A DNA stretch of 64,000 bases from the IMG/VR virus record IMGVR_UViG_3300027816_000057, one strand, 5' to 3'. The first letter of the stretch is position 1. Each line of letters begins with the position of its first letter. The notes beneath the pieces are model-generated. The model ran no database searches. It saw nothing but the letters and a program-made list of their open reading frames with translations, and was not told the DNA's origin. Positions 6,408 to 63,167 of the stretch are shown here, one piece after another. Position numbers and translations under genes: made by a program. This DNA is from a virus.

Positions 6408-6578
6408 ATGGACGAATTTGATTGTACGGACGAAATTCAGTGTGAGGAATTTTACGATGATTCAACCCTTGATGATTGGGAGGACGATCGAGAGGATAGT
6501 TTTCCGGATTGGTCCGATGCTGAATTCGATGAAACCGATCCGCACGATGATTATGATCCGTCCGATGGTAACTTTTAG
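6408..6578 (+). CDS. hyperacidic 56-aa protein (not in ORF track)
   Basis: GAAAGG SD; MDEFDCTDEIQCEEFYDD...; 26 of 56 residues D/E. Confidence 0.7.
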   Translation: MDEFDCTDEIQCEEFYDDSTLDDWEDDREDSFPDWSDAEFDETDPHDDYDPSDGNF

Positions 6579-7068: not shown

Positions 7069-7090
7069 AAGGGGTTTAATCCCCTTTTTT
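7069..7090 (+). terminator. intrinsic terminator
   Basis: AAGGGG/CCCCTT plus T-run. Confidence 0.75.
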
Positions 7091-7166
7091 ATTTGCATAA
7101 TCTAATCAAATATATTTTATCGTTCCAATGAATTAAAAAATAACATACATAAGGATAGAATATAGC

Positions 7167-7403
7167 ATGTTTATTATCTTTCGCAAAGTTACTAGCGTTA
7201 AAGATCACTATTCTAGATCAATTAACGTTGGTCCCTGTAGTATCGAATTTAAGAAAATGATTTACACTGTCAAAGATAATAATTTGGCAGTCGGTATTTT
7301 TCCTGAAGAAACCGATCGTATGCCGATTATTGTTTTTAATCCAACTGTTGATTTTGAAATCTCAGAAACTTGTCCCGACGATATCGGTTTGGTTAATTTC
7401 TAG
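7167..7403 (+). CDS. hypothetical protein (leaderless)
   Basis: GATAGAAT-N5-ATG. Confidence 0.65.
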   Translation: MFIIFRKVTSVKDHYSRSINVGPCSIEFKKMIYTVKDNNLAVGIFPEETDRMPIIVFNPTVDFEISETCPDDIGLVNF

Positions 7404-7425
7404 GCATCCAAGGATATAATAGGAC

Positions 7426-7602
7426 ATGGAAAAGATCAAAACTCAAGAAGAAATTATCCAAGAAGGATATCAGGCTTTCGTGGATGCTTTGAATATTGAT
7501 GATTGTCCGTATAAAACTAATGAAAATATGTCGGCTTGGAAAAAGGGTTATACCGAAGCCGAAAATGATTATTTCGATGCTTTGGACCAAGATTACGCTT
7601 AA
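7426..7602 (+). CDS. RMF/CrpP-fold-like 58-aa protein (not in ORF track)
   Basis: EGYQAF-x7-CPY-x7-AWKKGYTEA matches the RMF pattern GYQA...CPY...W..G; GATATAAT-N5-ATG. Confidence 0.6.
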   Translation: MEKIKTQEEIIQEGYQAFVDALNIDDCPYKTNENMSAWKKGYTEAENDYFDALDQDYA

Positions 7603-7630
7603 ATATGCCATAGGCAGGATATAATAGACT

Positions 7631-7846
7631 ATGCCAAAAGCACTTGAATTGAAGCCGGGAACGAAGTTTCGACTTAAGATGCCCGGTATTAGGGATGTTG
7701 TTTACATCCGCCCGGAAGTAGTTTCTGATGGTCCGGTATTGTGGGTGGATAATGGAAAACTTTACTGTTCTTGTATGGGCAACTTTCAGACATACTTTTC
7801 CGACAATCCCGAAGTGATTGTAACCGACGAAAAAATCACGATCTAG
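7631..7846 (+). CDS. hypothetical protein (leaderless)
   Basis: GATATAAT-N5-ATG. Confidence 0.7.
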   Translation: MPKALELKPGTKFRLKMPGIRDVVYIRPEVVSDGPVLWVDNGKLYCSCMGNFQTYFSDNPEVIVTDEKITI

Positions 7847-7861
7847 ACGATACAATAATGT

Positions 7862-8002
7862 AGTACCGGGTCTGCATCCTGAACAAAATAAAGGAAACCA
7901 AAACCCGACTGAATAGTTATTGGCGGTTTTCTCTGGTCCGCCGTTATATCACCAAAACCGGGAATCCATGTCTGCTCGGTATGAAAATACCGGGCGGATT
8001 TT
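7862..8002 (+). ncRNA. candidate small RNA
   Basis: GATACAAT at 7849; no credible ORF; terminator-like hairpin at 7971-8002. Confidence 0.4.
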
Positions 8003-8055
8003 AGACGGTCGCCCAATACGTCGTAAAAATCTACCATCTAAGGATACAATAAACC

Positions 8056-8328
8056 ATGCCAAAGAATCCCCAACCATCCGCAATTATTATCTACAAATCT
8101 AGTGAAGTGTTTGAGGATGCTCATTCTTCTGATATGGACTTGGAGAATCCACACAACATTTTTGGTCAATTAAATAGGGACGGAGGATATAATTGGGGAG
8201 GGAATGATAAAACTCTTGTGGCTGTGCATTGGGTAGAAAATTACATTAACGCGAATGATCTTTCAACGAACGATCGGCAGCGTTTGCGTAGTTTGCCAGA
8301 ATCGGCCTACATTGATCTTGAAAATTAG
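8056..8328 (+). CDS. hypothetical protein (leaderless)
   Basis: GATACAAT-N5-ATG. Confidence 0.7.
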   Translation: MPKNPQPSAIIIYKSSEVFEDAHSSDMDLENPHNIFGQLNRDGGYNWGGNDKTLVAVHWVENYINANDLSTNDRQRLRSLPESAYIDLEN

Positions 8329-8351
8329 CCTACGGCAGGATATAATAGATT

Positions 8352-8501
8352 ATGAAAGTTATTATCTATACATTCTTTGGTAAGGTTCTAAAGGAATTCC
8401 CCGTTCCTGATAATCAAACGCACCATGCAACATTTGAGGAAGCTAGAGAGTGGGCACTTTCTAATTTAGATTTCAATAAGTGGTGGATTCGAGTAGACTG
8501 A
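8352..8501 (+). CDS. 49-aa hypothetical protein (leaderless, not in ORF track)
   Basis: GATATAAT-N5-ATG; MKVIIYTFFG... Confidence 0.6.
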   Translation: MKVIIYTFFGKVLKEFPVPDNQTHHATFEEAREWALSNLDFNKWWIRVD

Positions 8502-8665
8502 GGGGCTTTAATTCCAAAGTCCTCATTTTTGCATTTTTTAGCATAAATTAGTAATTACTTTTTGACAGTCGGCAACTTAAATAATTGCGGCGGCGGATAT
8601 AATATATTGACTGTTGTTGTAAAAAACAAAGCAAAATAAAAAGCGTATCGCTACGCCTTTGTTTT

Positions 8666-31314: not shown

Positions 31315-32316
31315 ATGGCTCACGGAATTGAATACTTTGATAAAGTGGTATCGCGTCACGGGACAGAATGGCACGGTAAAGCTATCCATGTTAACGAAGA
31401 TATGGATGTGCATCGTGCCGCTAAGGAAATTAGGCTTGATCAGTGGTCTATTCTAGAAGAACCTATTGAATATAAAGGTAAGAAAGTTGATGGACATAAA
31501 CTTCTAGTCTGCTCAGATAATAATCATGTTATTTCTGTTGTAGGTGCAAAGTATCGCCCCGTTCAGCCTAAAGAAATTATTGATTTCATTAGTGATTTGA
31601 CTGTGGATAAAAATGTCGCTAAGGTTACTTCGGCTGGTACTTTTTGGAATCGTGAGGACGTTGTTTTTAGCGTCGAAATTCCCCGTGAATATAGGGTTAA
31701 TAATGACGAAATGCGTCCTTATCTTTTGGTTTCAAACAATAATGCTGCGAAGCGTAAGTTTGTTGTAGGTTTTACCGCTACTCGTGTAATCTGTAATAAT
31801 ACTCACAAGATTGCTCTGAGAGAACTGAAGGGTAGCAGGTATTATTCTATGAAGCATACTGAGGGTCTTGGTAGTCGAATTCAGGACGTTCGATTGGCTT
31901 TGGAACTTGGTATTAAGGCTTTTGATAACATGGATGAAGAAATGCATAAGATGATTTCCGTCGTCGATCCTACGGTAATCAAATCTTATTATGATGAAGT
32001 GGTTCCCCTGCCAAATAAGCCAGCTAATGCTAGCGGAACTAGTTTAAAGAGATGGGAAACCAAAGTGGAAAAGGCTCGTGAATCACGAGTTAAAATGAAT
32101 CAACGAATGATGTACGAAAGCGATACTCTAAAGCAGAAGCCTAATCTTTGGCTTGCGTATAACAGTGTAAATTGGTACAACGAGAATCATTCTCGTATTA
32201 ATCAAGAAGATGATTACAGTCTCAATCGTCCGTTTAGTATTGCTCTTGGTCGTATTGGCGAACTTAATATCGATGCTTATGATGCTGCGTATGACATGAT
32301 GTTAGCTAACGCTTAA
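31315..32316 (+). CDS. DUF932 / TIGR03299-like phage-plasmid protein
   Basis: WHG, VG.KY.PVQ and TRVICNNT motifs; AAGGAG SD; terminator at 32321-32352. Confidence 0.8.
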   Translation: MAHGIEYFDKVVSRHGTEWHGKAIHVNEDMDVHRAAKEIRLDQWSILEEPIEYKGKKVDGHKLLVCSDNNHVISVVGAKYRPVQPKEIIDFISDLTVDKNVAKVTSAGTFWNREDVVFSVEIPREYRVNNDEMRPYLLVSNNNAAKRKFVVGFTATRVICNNTHKIALRELKGSRYYSMKHTEGLGSRIQDVRLALELGIKAFDNMDEEMHKMISVVDPTVIKSYYDEVVPLPNKPANASGTSLKRWETKVEKARESRVKMNQRMMYESDTLKQKPNLWLAYNSVNWYNENHSRINQEDDYSLNRPFSIALGRIGELNIDAYDAAYDMMLANA

Positions 32317-33206: not shown

Positions 33207-33543
33207 AGATTTAGAGAGTGGCAATTTTAGACAGGCAAGATGTAAACTTAAAGATCAAAGAAATAAAGGTTATAATTATTGTTGTATTGGTGTAGCTGAA
33301 GTTTCGGCTAAAAAATGTGATCTAGTTAATGATGTTACTCATAATGTGAGCGGTGATTTACTTTCAGTACTTGCTGAAGAACCAGACGGTTATGATATCG
33401 TAAAGCATTTTTTGAATACTAAAAATCCAGAAATATCTATCAATAATATTGATACAAATTGTATTTCAGCTAATGATAGATATCTTTGCAATTTCAAGCA
33501 AATAGCACAAGGTTTGCGGGATAAATACAATGTTCGAGGTTAA
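33160..33543 (+). CDS. hypothetical protein (family with 54180 and 54533)
   Basis: W..DLESG.F.Q...L...YCCIG...ND..F..IA. Confidence 0.7.
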   Translation: MKLTQKARKFLRQWIKDLESGNFRQARCKLKDQRNKGYNYCCIGVAEVSAKKCDLVNDVTHNVSGDLLSVLAEEPDGYDIVKHFLNTKNPEISINNIDTNCISANDRYLCNFKQIAQGLRDKYNVRG

Positions 33544-34549
33544 AAACTATCGTCTGCGGCTAGTAGAACCATTAGTTAATTCAGACTTTCTTGATATAGC
33601 GTGGGTTAATGATTGGCCCTGCGTCGTAAAACGATCGCAGTATAAAACTGGTGATCTTGTTACTTATATTCCCTCCGATTCTATAGTTCCGGATGAATTG
33701 CTGGAACAAATTGGTCTTAAAGGGAAATTAAGTGGTAGCCGTAAAAACCGGGTAAAAGCTGTTAGACTAAGAGGCCAGTTTAGCTGCGGTTTGATTGTAG
33801 ATGTTCCTAACGGAACAGAAGAAGGCCAAGACGTAGCCGAGATTTTAGGTATTACAAAATACGAAGAACCTATTCCTGCTCAGCTTAGAGGAGTAGCAAG
33901 AAAACATCCTCCGTATTGGTTACATTATGATATCGAAAATATTAGAATGTATAATAGCTGGTTTGAAGAAGGTGAAAGCGTTGTTATAACTGAAAAAGTT
34001 CACGGATGTAATTGCTCGTTCTCTATTCATCTTTCAGATGAAAATGAAATCGTTTTTAGTGTATCATCTAGAAATATAACCTTAGAAGAATCTGATTCGA
34101 ATACATATTGGTCTGTTGCTAGAAAATATAACATTAAAGATTTCATGATGAAATCGTTTTCGCACCTTTTAAATAAAGGAGACGCGATATATTTGTATTG
34201 CGAAATTCTTAATACTCAGGATTTAAAGTATGGAATTCCAAATGGCGAGTTTGAAATCAGGTTCTTTGATCTCCGATTTAATTATAATTGGAGGTCTTTC
34301 TATGATCTTGCTTCATTTCTTGGAAATGATTATAAAACGGTTCCTGTTCTCTACGAAGGGCCGTTCTCAAAAGAAAAAGTATTAGAATATACTAATGGCA
34401 CTGAATTGATTAGCGGGCAACAACTTCATATCCGAGAAGGCTGTGTGGTTCGTCCGGTATTAGAAAGATATTGTGGACGCAATAGAGTCATAGCTAAATC
34501 AATTAGCGAGGACTATCTAACCAGACAAAATGGTACGGAGATGCATTAA
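33530..34549 (+). CDS. RNA ligase, DRB0094/Rnl2-type
   Basis: N-terminal OB-like domain (LRGQFSCGL); TEKVHG; REGCVVRP; KSISEDYL. Confidence 0.85.
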   Translation: MFEVKNYRLRLVEPLVNSDFLDIAWVNDWPCVVKRSQYKTGDLVTYIPSDSIVPDELLEQIGLKGKLSGSRKNRVKAVRLRGQFSCGLIVDVPNGTEEGQDVAEILGITKYEEPIPAQLRGVARKHPPYWLHYDIENIRMYNSWFEEGESVVITEKVHGCNCSFSIHLSDENEIVFSVSSRNITLEESDSNTYWSVARKYNIKDFMMKSFSHLLNKGDAIYLYCEILNTQDLKYGIPNGEFEIRFFDLRFNYNWRSFYDLASFLGNDYKTVPVLYEGPFSKEKVLEYTNGTELISGQQLHIREGCVVRPVLERYCGRNRVIAKSISEDYLTRQNGTEMH

Positions 34550-45318: not shown

Positions 45319-45951
45319 ATGTTACACAACAACACGGTACAATTAATAGGGCATTACGGAAGTGATGAAATACATGCGTTATCGGCATGGACTTCAACAT
45401 CTAGAGAGTTATCAGACAGTAAAGTAGAGAGGATACCTGCGTTACTAAATATGCTAGCTAAAGAAGGTCATCATACACCTTTCGAAAAATCTTGTTTTCA
45501 TTTTTTAGTAACAACAGATGTAGCAAGCCATATACATTTAATAAAACATAGAATTAACGTTTCGGTAAATGCTGAGTCGGCAAGATATAAAGAATTAAAA
45601 GAAGATAAATATTACATCCCCTATGATTGGCCTGATAATTGGAAAAATAAACTAGAAGAATATACTGCACAAGGAAATAAACTATATCATGAAGCTATAG
45701 AGGATTTGACTAAGCAATACGGTTTCGACAGAAAAAGAGCGAAAGAATCAGCTAGATTCTTTAAAACTTACAATTCTCAAATTACATCAGATGTAATGTT
45801 TAATTTTAGAAGTTTTAATCATTTTCTTAGTTTAAGAAAAACAGAACATGCTCAAAAAGAAATTTTTTATGTAGCCTCAGATATGTTAAATCTAGTTAAA
45901 AATATACCTTCTAATCCGTTCAAATTTACTCTTGCAGCTTTTGGATATTAA
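45319..45951 (+). CDS. thyX: flavin-dependent thymidylate synthase
   Basis: HHTPFE, KHR..S..ESARY and LR..HAQKEI. Confidence 0.92.
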   Translation: MLHNNTVQLIGHYGSDEIHALSAWTSTSRELSDSKVERIPALLNMLAKEGHHTPFEKSCFHFLVTTDVASHIHLIKHRINVSVNAESARYKELKEDKYYIPYDWPDNWKNKLEEYTAQGNKLYHEAIEDLTKQYGFDRKRAKESARFFKTYNSQITSDVMFNFRSFNHFLSLRKTEHAQKEIFYVASDMLNLVKNIPSNPFKFTLAAFGY

Positions 45952-51329: not shown

Positions 51330-51816
51330 TTATGAATCTATCGGAATTTTTTCCGATAATAGATTTGTCGCAAAAAATGAAAGATTATCGTGGGATGAGT
51401 ATTTTCTTAATATCGCTTTTCTTGTTGCGGAAAGATCGCACGATTCACAAACAAAACACGGCTGCGTTTTTGTAAAAAATAATCAAATAATAAGTACCGG
51501 TTATAATGGTTTTCCCGGTGGTTCACCCGATGACATTATACCAAATGTAAGACCATATAAATATGATTTTATACATCACGCAGAAGATAATGCTATTTTT
51601 CAAGCAGCTAAATTAGGATTAACTTTAGATGGTTGTGTAGCATATATTACCGGTATGCCGTGTTGCAGATGTTTACCTAAATTAATTAGTGTTGGTATTA
51701 AAAAAATACACATTGGCGATAGAATACATCAACAAACCGAAAAAGATAAATTGTTGCAAGATTTTTGGATTTCTCAGTTTAAATTGGAGATAATAAAAAA
51801 TGGAATTAACCGATAA
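51313..51816 (+). CDS. dCMP deaminase
   Basis: WDEYFL, TGYNG, HAEDNA and PCCRC. Confidence 0.92.
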   Translation: MKSIHDYESIGIFSDNRFVAKNERLSWDEYFLNIAFLVAERSHDSQTKHGCVFVKNNQIISTGYNGFPGGSPDDIIPNVRPYKYDFIHHAEDNAIFQAAKLGLTLDGCVAYITGMPCCRCLPKLISVGIKKIHIGDRIHQQTEKDKLLQDFWISQFKLEIIKNGINR

Positions 51817-53173
51817 TATACTTTTACAGTCAGATAGTTATAAATATTCAATGCATAATCAGTACCCTTCGGGCACTGAATATGTTTATGAATATATGGA
51901 AAGTCGGAAAAACTCGGAATATCCCGATACGGTATTTTTTGGACTTCAATATTATTTAATGAGATATTTAAGTAAACCTGTTACCAAAAAAGAGGTTGAA
52001 TACGCTAGAGATTTTTTCGCACAACACTTCGGTAAAGAGGTATTTAATTATGACGGTTGGATGTATATTGTAGAAAAACACGGCGGATATCTACCTGTTA
52101 CTATTCGATCGGTTGACGAAGGATCGGTTATTCCAATTGACAATGTTCTAATGACGATAGAAAATACCGACCCTAATTGTTTTTGGCTAACTACCTTTCT
52201 AGAGACATTGCTTCTTAAAGTTTGGTATCCTTCAACCGTCGCCACCATTAGTTATTTCAATAAACAAGAGATTCTTAATAATCTAATAGCAACCGGAGAT
52301 CCTTCTTTAATTGATTTTAAGCTGCATGATTTTGGATTCCGAGGAGTTTCATCCTGTGAATCAGCCGCCCTTGGTGGTGCCGGGCATCTAATAAACTTTA
52401 AAGGAACCGATACGGTATTGGCTCTAGAATTAATACGTCAATATTACGACATTGATATGGTCGGTTTTTCTATTCCGGCTATGGAACATTCTACTGTTAC
52501 ATCTTGGGGAGAGAAAAATGAGTCCGCTGCATACGCTAATATGTTGAATAAATATCCAGACGGATTAGTAGCTTGTGTTAGCGATAGTTATGATATCTTT
52601 AACGCTTGCGAAAATATCTTTGGCGAAGAATTAAAAGATTTAGTTGTCAACAGAAAAGGATGTTTGGTCATTAGACCAGATTCTGGTGAACCTACATTAG
52701 TTTTGATGAAGATTCTTCCTAAATTAGAGGCTAAATTTGGCTCTACAATAAATAGTAAAGGATACAAGGTATTACCTCCTTATGTTAGGATTATTTGGGG
52801 CGACGGTATTGATTCTAAGTCTATCCCTTTTATTTTACGAAATCTGAAAGATTTAGGATGGTCCGGCGATAATCTAGCTTTTGGTTCTGGAGGCGGATTA
52901 TTGCAAAAACTAAATAGAGATACACAATCATTTGCTATTAAGTGTTCATCTATTACTGTATTAGGTAATCAAATTAATGTATATAAAAATCCAGTTACTC
53001 AATCTTCTAAACAAAGCAAGAGAGGTAGACTAGATTTAGATTTAATCGCGGGTAAATATATTACCGTGCCAGAAGGTACAGCTATTAATAGTCAGCTAAA
53101 AACTCGATTCCATAATGGAAAACTATTTAATTTAATTTCGTTTAACCAAATAAGGAAAAACGCGAGCAAATGA
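51800..53173 (+). CDS. nadV: nicotinamide phosphoribosyltransferase
   Basis: DSYK, HDFGFRG, EHS, VSDSYD, RPDSG and GSGGGLLQ. Confidence 0.95.
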   Translation: MELTDNILLQSDSYKYSMHNQYPSGTEYVYEYMESRKNSEYPDTVFFGLQYYLMRYLSKPVTKKEVEYARDFFAQHFGKEVFNYDGWMYIVEKHGGYLPVTIRSVDEGSVIPIDNVLMTIENTDPNCFWLTTFLETLLLKVWYPSTVATISYFNKQEILNNLIATGDPSLIDFKLHDFGFRGVSSCESAALGGAGHLINFKGTDTVLALELIRQYYDIDMVGFSIPAMEHSTVTSWGEKNESAAYANMLNKYPDGLVACVSDSYDIFNACENIFGEELKDLVVNRKGCLVIRPDSGEPTLVLMKILPKLEAKFGSTINSKGYKVLPPYVRIIWGDGIDSKSIPFILRNLKDLGWSGDNLAFGSGGGLLQKLNRDTQSFAIKCSSITVLGNQINVYKNPVTQSSKQSKRGRLDLDLIAGKYITVPEGTAINSQLKTRFHNGKLFNLISFNQIRKNASK

Positions 53174-53811
53174 TCCACTTTACTTGTTGCACTCATTTTT
53201 TTGATGATAGACTAGAGTTACTAGGTAGACCATTTTCTTCAGTAGAGGAAATGAACAGTCATATCGTTGAAAACTGGAATAAAAAAGTTAAACCAGATGA
53301 TGAGGTTTACCATCTTGGGGACGCTATAAAATTTGATAGATTTGATATTGAAGATGATGCGAATGGTTATCCTCTAAAAATATCGGATGAAAATTTAGAA
53401 AAAATTTCTATATTAGGTCGTTTGAATGGTAAAAAACACCTTATATTAGGAAATTATGATCCGTCTTTAGATAAAACCAATTTTTATTTTCAAGAATATT
53501 CAAAATACTTTCTATCGATTTCTAATAACTTCTCATTAGATGTTAACGAACGAGATTTAACCTTTAAGTTATTTTTAACTCATAAACCGATTCATGCGGT
53601 AAAAGACAGATTTAATATCGTCGGACATATTCATGGTGCTTGGAAAATACAACGTAATATGTTAAATGTTTGTCAAGACGCACATCATTATTATCCGGTA
53701 TCTTTTGACAAAATATTATTTTATTATCAAGGTATATCAAAAGGATACTTTGATGAAAATGTTTTTTGTCAAGAATCAGCAGCAAACAAAACAACCGCCC
53801 GAATTATCTAA
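53170..53811 (+). CDS. calcineurin-like phosphoesterase
   Basis: THF, HLGD, LGNYD and GHIH. Confidence 0.8.
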   Translation: MIHFTCCTHFFDDRLELLGRPFSSVEEMNSHIVENWNKKVKPDDEVYHLGDAIKFDRFDIEDDANGYPLKISDENLEKISILGRLNGKKHLILGNYDPSLDKTNFYFQEYSKYFLSISNNFSLDVNERDLTFKLFLTHKPIHAVKDRFNIVGHIHGAWKIQRNMLNVCQDAHHYYPVSFDKILFYYQGISKGYFDENVFCQESAANKTTARII

Positions 53812-56878: not shown

Positions 56879-57982
56879 ATGAATCCAGCAGAAATAGTTA
56901 ATCAGTTCGACTCGATTAAAATTCTTTTACAAGAATTAGATAAATTAGTAGCTGATGGCTATATTTATGAATCCAAAAAGGGTTCACTATCACTATTCAA
57001 TTATTCTGATAAATGCTGTTTTGAAAAACTCTGGAATCCGGTTACTCGTTTAGCACGCGGTCTTATTATTGATCGTGAAAGCGAGCAAATTATATGCTGG
57101 CCTATTCCTAAGTTTTTTAACTATCTTGAAAATATTAATGACAAAATTCCCGATCTCTCATTTGAAATACAAGAAAAAATAGACGGTTCTTGTATATTTT
57201 TATGGATGTATCAAGGTGAATGGTTTTGTTCTACGCGGGGTTCTTTTAATAGCGACCAAGCGGCTTGGGCACAAGACTATATTAATTCTATTTTACATAA
57301 TCTTAATTTATACGCCGACACAACTTATATATTTGAGGTTGTTTATCCCGGTAATAAAATAGTAGTAAATTATAATGGCTACGCCGGATTGTATTCTTTG
57401 ACAGGCTATCAAAATGGAATTGAGGTTGATAAACTATTTTTAGACGATACTTTTCAATATGCTAATTCTCAGAATTCTGATACTATTCGTTTTCCTAAGA
57501 TGTATTCTTACGAAAATATAGAATCTTTAGTTGAAATATGTAAGACTCTTCCGAAAGACGAAGAAGGTTTTGTCGTTCGCTGGAATAATGGTTTTCGTTT
57601 AAAATTCAAAGGTGCGGAATATTTACGAGTTCATAAACTCATTAGTCAAGTTACTCCACTTGGCATTTGGGATATTCTGTGTAATAATGATAATGTTGAT
57701 AATGTAAAACAACAATTACCTGAAGAATTCTGGAATGATTTTGATAGCATAGCCGAAAAACTTAAATTTAAATTTCAACATATAAAATCTCATAATATTC
57801 TTTGGGTTTTAGCTGAAGAAAAAATGAATAATTTAGATAGAAAGACATTTGCGAAGCAGGCTATAGAATCATCTAAAAATGATCCTATTTTAAATACCGC
57901 TTTGTTATTTAAAATATATGACGGAAAAGATATAGATGATATGATTTGGAAAATGATTCGGCCAACGGGTAATGTATTATGA
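56879..57982 (+). CDS. T4 Rnl1-like RNA ligase
   Basis: ARGLI, KFFN, EKIDGS, STRGSF, EGFVV and KFK..EY. Confidence 0.88.
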   Translation: MNPAEIVNQFDSIKILLQELDKLVADGYIYESKKGSLSLFNYSDKCCFEKLWNPVTRLARGLIIDRESEQIICWPIPKFFNYLENINDKIPDLSFEIQEKIDGSCIFLWMYQGEWFCSTRGSFNSDQAAWAQDYINSILHNLNLYADTTYIFEVVYPGNKIVVNYNGYAGLYSLTGYQNGIEVDKLFLDDTFQYANSQNSDTIRFPKMYSYENIESLVEICKTLPKDEEGFVVRWNNGFRLKFKGAEYLRVHKLISQVTPLGIWDILCNNDNVDNVKQQLPEEFWNDFDSIAEKLKFKFQHIKSHNILWVLAEEKMNNLDRKTFAKQAIESSKNDPILNTALLFKIYDGKDIDDMIWKMIRPTGNVL

Positions 57983-62318: not shown

Positions 62319-63167
62319 ATGGATTATCCTAAATTTTGTGATCATCCCGATTTTCTAGCATTAACGGGGTCAAGATTATACGGTTATCATACCGAAAAAT
62401 CGGATTATGATTATCGCGGTTTTGTTGTGCCTCCCTCTAAATATCTTCTTGGTATAGAGAATTTTTTATTCCACCAAAAGAAAGATACTGACACTATAGT
62501 TTTTTCACTAAAGCATTTTATAGATATAACTCTAAAAGGAAATACTCAAACTTTTGAGATTCTTTTTTCTAATGATATACAACATAGTCAGACCGGATAT
62601 GAATTACTTTCTTTGCGTAAAAATTTCTTTAGTCAAAAGATAATACGTTCTACTTTAGGTTTTGCTTTAAGCGAGTGGAGGAAAACTCTTTCTCAGGCTT
62701 TAGTATTTGAATATCGTGATTCAAAACAAGAAGAAATACTAACTCAATTAGCCGGAACCTTTCAACTTAAAAGAGATGAAATAAAAGAAATATACGATAT
62801 AATATTTAGAGAACGAATAGACGACGATCCGCGTCGATATGTTCCTAATGATAAAATAGGCGAAAAAGCTAAACTAGATATACAGCAGTATGGATATCAA
62901 TTAAAACCTGCCTGTAATACAATACGTTTACTTTGCCAAGCAATAGAATTTGTTGAAACCGGCAAAATAACATATCCCCGTCCGGAATTATCGGTACTTA
63001 AAGATATACGATCCGGTTTACTGTCTTATGCAAATGTAAATGATTTATTTAATGAATATTATAATAAATTATCTAAAATTGATTTGTCTAGTTTACCGGT
63101 AAAACCAAATCATAATGGTGTTATGGAATGGTATCGGGACGTAGCCGAAAAGGAGATTAAAAATTGA
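62319..63167 (+). CDS. Pol-beta superfamily nucleotidyltransferase (RlaP/YcgL-like)
   Basis: GSRLYG..SDYDYRG; leaderless. Confidence 0.8.
   Translation: MDYPKFCDHPDFLALTGSRLYGYHTEKSDYDYRGFVVPPSKYLLGIENFLFHQKKDTDTIVFSLKHFIDITLKGNTQTFEILFSNDIQHSQTGYELLSLRKNFFSQKIIRSTLGFALSEWRKTLSQALVFEYRDSKQEEILTQLAGTFQLKRDEIKEIYDIIFRERIDDDPRRYVPNDKIGEKAKLDIQQYGYQLKPACNTIRLLCQAIEFVETGKITYPRPELSVLKDIRSGLLSYANVNDLFNEYYNKLSKIDLSSLPVKPNHNGVMEWYRDVAEKEIKN

Follow-up and report, generated by a model that had tools for sequence, protein, structure and literature searches.

A strongly acidic Rmf/CrpP-fold protein in an early-type region of a large uncultured tailed phage: most likely not a translation switch

The window analyzed here is a stretch of 64,000 nucleotides from the virus record IMGVR_UViG_3300027816_000057 of IMG/VR. 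At positions 7426-7602 (+) it carries a short ORF, running from ATG to TAA, whose 58-aa product resembles ribosome modulation factor (RMF). The locus raises the question of whether this protein acts on the ribosome as RMF does, or has the RMF fold and another task. The initial annotation took the first view. It placed the ORF correctly, and the peptide that it quoted is present in the translation. It further proposed that the product binds the 30S subunit near the anti-SD sequence and dampens SD-led initiation while leaderless phage mRNAs are still read. Sequence and family models identify the CDS as that of an acidic Rmf/CrpP-fold protein, referred to below as P0001. The description of the gene as unannotated holds only for a reader without tools, as the public gene calls for the same contig already include the ORF together with a precomputed PF04957 match. 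P0001 is found on contigs of about 162.7 kb from many assemblies, and the identical protein is present in at least 24 contigs (24 contigs were read; 27 index blocks contain a contig of 50-200 kb). All known copies are identical in sequence. The 7426-7602 ORF is a real gene of an uncultured tailed phage of ~163 kb.

The relationship to RMF is supported by several sequence comparisons. P0001 matches the Pfam RMF model PF04957 with 35.0 bits (E = 1.5e-08; gathering score 27.9) and the NCBIfam subfamily model NF041886 (Rmf_CrpP_fam) with 32.2 bits (cut-off 28). In a phmmer search of the PDB it retrieves the RMF chains of hibernating ribosomes, 6h4n_v and 4v8g_AV, at E values of about 1e-3, and BLASTP aligns it to the annotated record of E. 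coli K-12 RMF with 39% identity over 41 ungapped residues. The core motifs G-Y-x-A, C-P-Y, and W-x-x-G-[WY] are in register. Across 21 relatives there is no variation at G14, A17, P28, W38, or G41 and almost none at C27; all six are intact in P0001. The likeness to the RMF core first noticed by eye (GYQA / CPY / W..G) therefore has statistical backing from PF04957, NF041886, phmmer, and BLASTP. The score against the RMF equivalog model NF011162 is 31.0 bits, below the curated cut-off of 40. A search with an HMM over all six-frame ORFs of at least 25 aa revealed no further RMF-like copy in the window. P0001 belongs to the Rmf/CrpP-fold superfamily, in which it is divergent and strongly acidic.

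Within this superfamily, P0001 scores below the cut-offs of the CrpP, CrpP-related, and phage Rmf-like models. The CrpP proteins found on integrative conjugative elements, and the proteins related to them, share the superfamily and are borne by mobile elements, with functions that are unsettled, but P0001 is not a member of either family by score (21.8 bits vs a cut-off of 55 for NF033696 and 16.9 vs 35 for NF041856). The phage RMF-fold proteins collected in PHROG 28181, PHROG 13106, and NF041887 are, like P0001, small, stand-alone, and without an assigned function. Their sequences are nevertheless distant. The profile match to PHROG 28181 is borderline (E = 0.004, 18.2 bits), and the score against NF041887 (Rmf_like_phage) is 14.1 bits, with a cut-off of 40.

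The AlphaFold2 model of P0001, built on 21 relatives, has a mean pLDDT of 92.9. It predicts two α-helices, residues 7-19 and 32-57, with the CPY linker between them; the second helix carries an acidic-aromatic C-terminal tail. The same helix-CPY linker-helix fold is seen in RMF (E. coli b0953; PDB 6H4N, 9IOT, and 4V8G; Vibrio 2JRM; NF011162), which at 55 aa is close to P0001 in length and has the same GYQA / CPY / W..G[WY] motifs. Foldseek identifies RMF structures from E. coli and Vibrio as the top three PDB matches (TM 0.67-0.75, probability 0.97-1.00). The top three VIA-align matches are also RMF, with Z scores of 8.5 (rmsd 2.6 Å over 53 residues), 7.4, and 7.4. Comparison of a predicted structure with RMF, suggested as a check in the initial annotation, thus recovers the RMF fold. 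In the viral structure library BFVD the same fold is found with a probability of 1.00 and TM of 0.6-0.83, and the protein-atlas neighbors of P0001 are RMF clusters, part of them viral. The conserved residues G14, Y15, A17, C27-P28-Y29, W38, G41, and Y42 make up a small aromatic core that holds the hairpin, and not an RNA-binding face. The second helix of P0001 differs from that of RMF in being longer and acidic.

The charge of P0001 is the reverse of that of RMF. P0001 has a pI of 4.05 and a net charge of -9.5 (14 Asp/Glu and 5 Lys residues; Arg is absent), whereas E. coli RMF has a pI of 10.86 and a net charge of +6.6. In the ribosome-bound structure, helix 1 of RMF inserts between 16S helices h28 and h37/h40, and the conserved residues Arg3, Lys5, Arg8, Arg11, and Arg15 bond to the 16S phosphate backbone; Arg37, Glu10, and Gln39 contact domain 4 of S1, and the SD-anti-SD duplex is occluded (Beckert et al., bioRxiv 10.1101/382572). 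When the ungapped register of the phmmer and BLASTP alignments is followed, RMF residues R3, K5, R8, R11, and R15 correspond to M1, K3, T6, E9, and E13 of P0001, the first three lying just outside the HMM-aligned core and mapped by extending that register. Four of the five backbone contacts are lost, two of them reversed to Glu, and only the K5 position stays basic. At the S1 interface, R37 is replaced by Met and Q39 by Ala, and Glu10 alone is kept, as E8. Overall, 11 of the 12 basic positions of RMF are lost, two having turned acidic and one remaining basic, and the net charge of the N-terminal part plus helix 1 changes from +5 to -2.

It is unlikely that such a strongly negative helix enters the rRNA cleft. 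P0001 departs from RMF proper in features that define it: the equivalog score, the basic charge, and the rRNA contacts. The setting of the genes differs as well, RMF being a stationary-phase chromosomal gene of Gammaproteobacteria and P0001 a predicted early gene of a phage. Because the basic face that meets the rRNA cleft is lost, and because the second helix is longer and acidic-aromatic, P0001 is most likely without RMF action.

The promoter region agrees with the leaderless arrangement that had been read from the DNA. A TATAAT hexamer at 7415-7420 is followed, after 5 nt, by the ATG at 7426. The hexamer is part of an early promoter core, GGATATAATAG (7412-7422, +), and a -35-like TTAATT element (7393-7398, +) precedes the -10 box by 16 nt. 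A generic sigma-70 scan makes no call at the latter element, which matches TTGACA at three of six bases. When one mismatch is allowed, the window contains 29 copies of GGATATAATAG (28 on the + strand) against an expectation of 3.08, and none of 100 shuffles reaches 29. At most of these sites an ATG begins five nt after TATAAT. A TTAAA-like element recurs about 15-16 nt upstream of the GGATATAAT motifs. We note that the promoter class as a whole, TTAAA-N15/16-(G/T/A)GATATAAT with an ATG ~5 nt later, extends over 5300-62400 (+) of the window. Bacterial RNA polymerase usually initiates six to eight bases past the -10 hexamer. Given this distance and the spacing between TATAAT and ATG, the transcript should begin on or beside the AUG, and a leaderless mRNA is therefore predicted for the 7426 gene from promoter geometry.

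The bases ahead of the -10 box allow two readings. The G at 7413 occupies the G position of an extended -10 (TGn), two bases before TATAAT, and AAGGA at 7410-7414 would lie 11 nt ahead of the ATG on any read-through RNA. The conserved GGA fits an extended -10 at least as well as an SD sequence, and it could act as a distant SD on read-through RNA. SD-type genes are common in this phage, as the initial annotation had cautioned. Among 146 + strand ORFs of the 64-kb window, defined by a simple heuristic gene call, ~38 have leaderless-type starts, ~54 are SD-like if a permissive SD pattern is applied, and 54 fit neither class.

The gene belongs to a tightly packed run of five small genes with starts at 7167, 7426, 7631, 8056, and 8352. 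Terminator-like hairpins are found on the + strand at 7069-7086, closing the preceding unit, and at 8502-8523, ending the run. Between them (7087-8501, +), the terminator scan finds no convincing terminator and one weak site, inside the 7167 gene, so that the five genes may be read through from upstream promoters. The TAG of the 7167 gene (7401-7403) sits in the promoter spacer of the RMF-fold gene. Downstream, the TAA at 7600-7602 falls inside the -35-like TTAAAT (7599-7604, +) of the next promoter, which has its -10 at 7620-7625 and its ATG at 7631. The small ORFs around the 7426 gene have no assigned function, and most possess their own copy of GGATATAATAG. A further, extremely acidic early-type microprotein is encoded at 6408-6578 (+), some 850 bp ahead of the RMF-fold gene; this 56-aa ORF is about half Asp/Glu with scattered aromatics, has no family match, and is SD-led rather than leaderless.

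The window also contains ten tRNA genes and a clamp-loader subunit, for which tblastn returns only matches of about 34% identity from mixed phages. An RNA-repair set is present on the + strand, comprising two RNA ligases (PHROG 968 and 562) and an RlaP-family nucleotidyltransferase (PF10127), at 33530-34549, 56879-57982, and 62319-63167. A nicotinamide phosphoribosyltransferase (NAMPT) gene lies at 51800-53173 (+; PHROG 448, E = 1.6e-155), and its best genomic relatives (42-49% identity) are scattered among an archaeon, a Bacteroidaceae bin, and an enterobacterium. It overlaps by 4 nt with a 213-aa ORF (53170-53811, +) that has no Pfam match; the two may form a NAD salvage pair of the kind used against NAD-depleting defenses. 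The middle region also encodes a ThyX-type thymidylate synthase (45319-45951, +; PF02511) and a DUF932 protein (31315-32316, +; PF06067). The 6 kb around the RMF-fold gene yields no megablast match among 50,697 phage records, and the source is a large tailed phage without a close relative in that set.

Relatives of P0001 are few. In an exhaustive HMMER search of 1.84 billion representative proteins, only seven others fall below E = 1e-3, and none exceeds 58% identity. Profile searches add mostly Micrococcaceae proteins labeled 'RMF', which are near neutral in charge, and a few metagenomic ones. In tblastn searches of the phage records, P0001 gives one chance-level match (E = 1) and its relatives P0002 and P0006 give none. 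A pattern scan of IMG/VR with P0001 reveals no relative, and a word-indexed protein search returns P0001 itself only. The closest relative, P0002, has 48 residues, a net charge of -11.5, and 53-58% identity to P0001 by different measures. Its gene (L003:188-334) comes two genes before the one for a T7-type RNA polymerase, on a contig of 4 kb; in an autographivirus-like phage this position corresponds to the class I early region. P0006 (L005:218-373), also acidic, adjoins a T5-type deoxynucleotidase (dNMPase), the deoxynucleotidase of T5 being a pre-early gene. P0004 adjoins an MmeI-type restriction-modification gene. P0003 and P0005 are tandem repeats of the domain, and fused forms occur too. 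With the present phage included, acidic RMF-fold proteins are seen in early regions of three virulent phage types that are not related to one another.

An association with leaderless-rich phages, which the translation-switch proposal had offered as a check, is not what these contexts show. The nearest relatives have SD sites (GAGGA, AAGGAG, and GGAAGGA) at normal spacing, on contigs of 36-60% GC; because these are ordinary SD sites in SD-type phages, the family is not tied to leaderless-rich phages. The fold is common among phages of diverse hosts: its BFVD matches come from phages of Burkholderia, Serratia, Caulobacter, Gluconobacter, Rhizobium, Xanthomonas, Pseudomonas, Delftia, and Erwinia, and each of these is uncharacterized or bears only the automatic name 'ribosome modulation factor'. 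Our literature search found no paper on the function of any phage RMF-fold protein.

Two known systems help to place P0001. PA3049/BatR of P. aeruginosa, a close chromosomal homolog of RMF, is reported to have no role in ribosome hibernation, and candidate partners including the kinase SrkA have been examined by two-hybrid assay and AlphaFold3 modeling (PMC13411936). BatR is a precedent for the use of this fold in jobs other than hibernation; it is chromosomal, much nearer to RMF in sequence, and has an extra C-terminal helix of its own. The second system would be comparable to P0001 only in the way it works. T7 Ocr is a small, acidic, early phage protein with a strongly negative surface, and the gene for P0002 occupies the equivalent class I region. 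There is no kinship in sequence or fold between Ocr and P0001, and nucleic-acid mimicry by P0001 is conjectural.

We favor, with moderate confidence, the reading that P0001 is expressed early from a leaderless mRNA and is an acidic hairpin that binds a basic host protein, in the service of host takeover or counter-defense. Host RNA polymerase probably transcribes the 7426 gene early from its TTAAA-N15/16-GGATATAAT promoter, and read-through from the promoter of the preceding gene may contribute. The product would fold into a stable helical hairpin, acidic overall, whose second helix is long and acidic-aromatic. By virtue of its negative charge, the hairpin would bind a positively charged, probably nucleic-acid-binding, host protein, and by analogy with many small acidic early phage proteins this binding could serve early takeover of the host or counter-defense. 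We base the binding reading on the charge of the protein, the early placement of such genes in three unrelated virulent phage types, and the modular use of the domain in repeats and fusions, with BatR as a precedent. The tandem repeats of P0003 and P0005 and the fused forms fit a generic binding module. Two points weigh on the other side: 39% core identity with E. coli RMF is high for a protein of unrelated role, and an acidic protein could dock on basic ribosomal proteins.

The same binding surface could instead be directed at the phage's own machinery, P0001 serving, for instance, a basic DNA- or RNA-binding phage protein as its chaperone or regulator. The fused and repeated forms of the domain would suit such a role. 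The neighboring genes give no hint of it, however, all being without assigned function, and the 7426 gene stands under a promoter of its own, outside any replication or morphogenesis module. We regard this possibility as unlikely.

A ribosome-directed role of a kind different from that of RMF is more doubtful. P0001 could mimic RNA on a basic or RNA-binding translation protein, such as the mRNA-binding domains of S1, or it could sequester host RMF and so wake hibernating ribosomes. S1 is needed by leadered mRNAs and not by leaderless ones, and the leaderless context of the gene is real. The charge of P0001 complements both RNA-binding surfaces and the basic RMF, and RMF itself touches S1 domain 4 through contacts of which Glu10 is preserved. 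Against this, the two other S1 contacts are changed, the relatives reside in phages without a leaderless bias, and RMF occurs only in Gammaproteobacteria (PMC13411936), a group to which the host of this phage need not belong. These considerations leave such a role decidedly improbable. A bolder form of the idea, in which P0001 is a new kind of translation factor, a negative mimic that titrates host RMF or an RNA-binding component that leadered mRNAs require, such as S1, and tilts ribosomes toward leaderless phage transcripts within the first minutes of infection, appears very unlikely.

The mechanism of the initial annotation, in which P0001 fills the 30S pocket near the anti-SD sequence like RMF, blocks SD-led initiation, and spares the leaderless phage mRNAs, is highly improbable in our judgment. 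It draws on a real homology and fold, on the roughly 38 leaderless-type starts within the 64 kb of phage sequence, and on the occlusion of the SD-anti-SD duplex by RMF (bioRxiv 10.1101/382572). The block of SD-led initiation is not supported by the protein itself, which falls below the RMF equivalog cut-off, is acidic where RMF is basic, and has Glu at two of the four lost backbone contacts. Nor does it suit the phage: many phage genes are SD-like, including downstream cistrons of the early region, and with ~54 such ORFs among 146 a general anti-SD block would harm the phage itself. The relatives, moreover, are SD-led and belong to SD-type phages. What stands of the initial interpretation is the homology, the fold, the early-type region, and the leaderless geometry; the mechanism does not. 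Finally, that the ORF is a dispensable leftover, folded but functionless or not expressed at all, is hardly credible: only identical copies are known, but all superfamily-invariant residues are intact in a confidently modeled protein, a full-consensus promoter stands directly ahead of the ATG, and the exact protein is found in at least 24 contigs.

Rather than a translation switch, P0001 is most likely one more uncharacterized member of the RMF-fold proteins of phages. If such a switch existed, it would give a phage a novel means of setting its mRNAs apart from those of its host, but the evidence points otherwise. The label 'ribosome modulation factor', which Pfam and annotation pipelines place on proteins of phages and mobile elements, does not equate to function, and P0001 is a further case. 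The acidic RMF-fold group, with its recurrence in early regions, is a reasonable target for the study of its binding partner.
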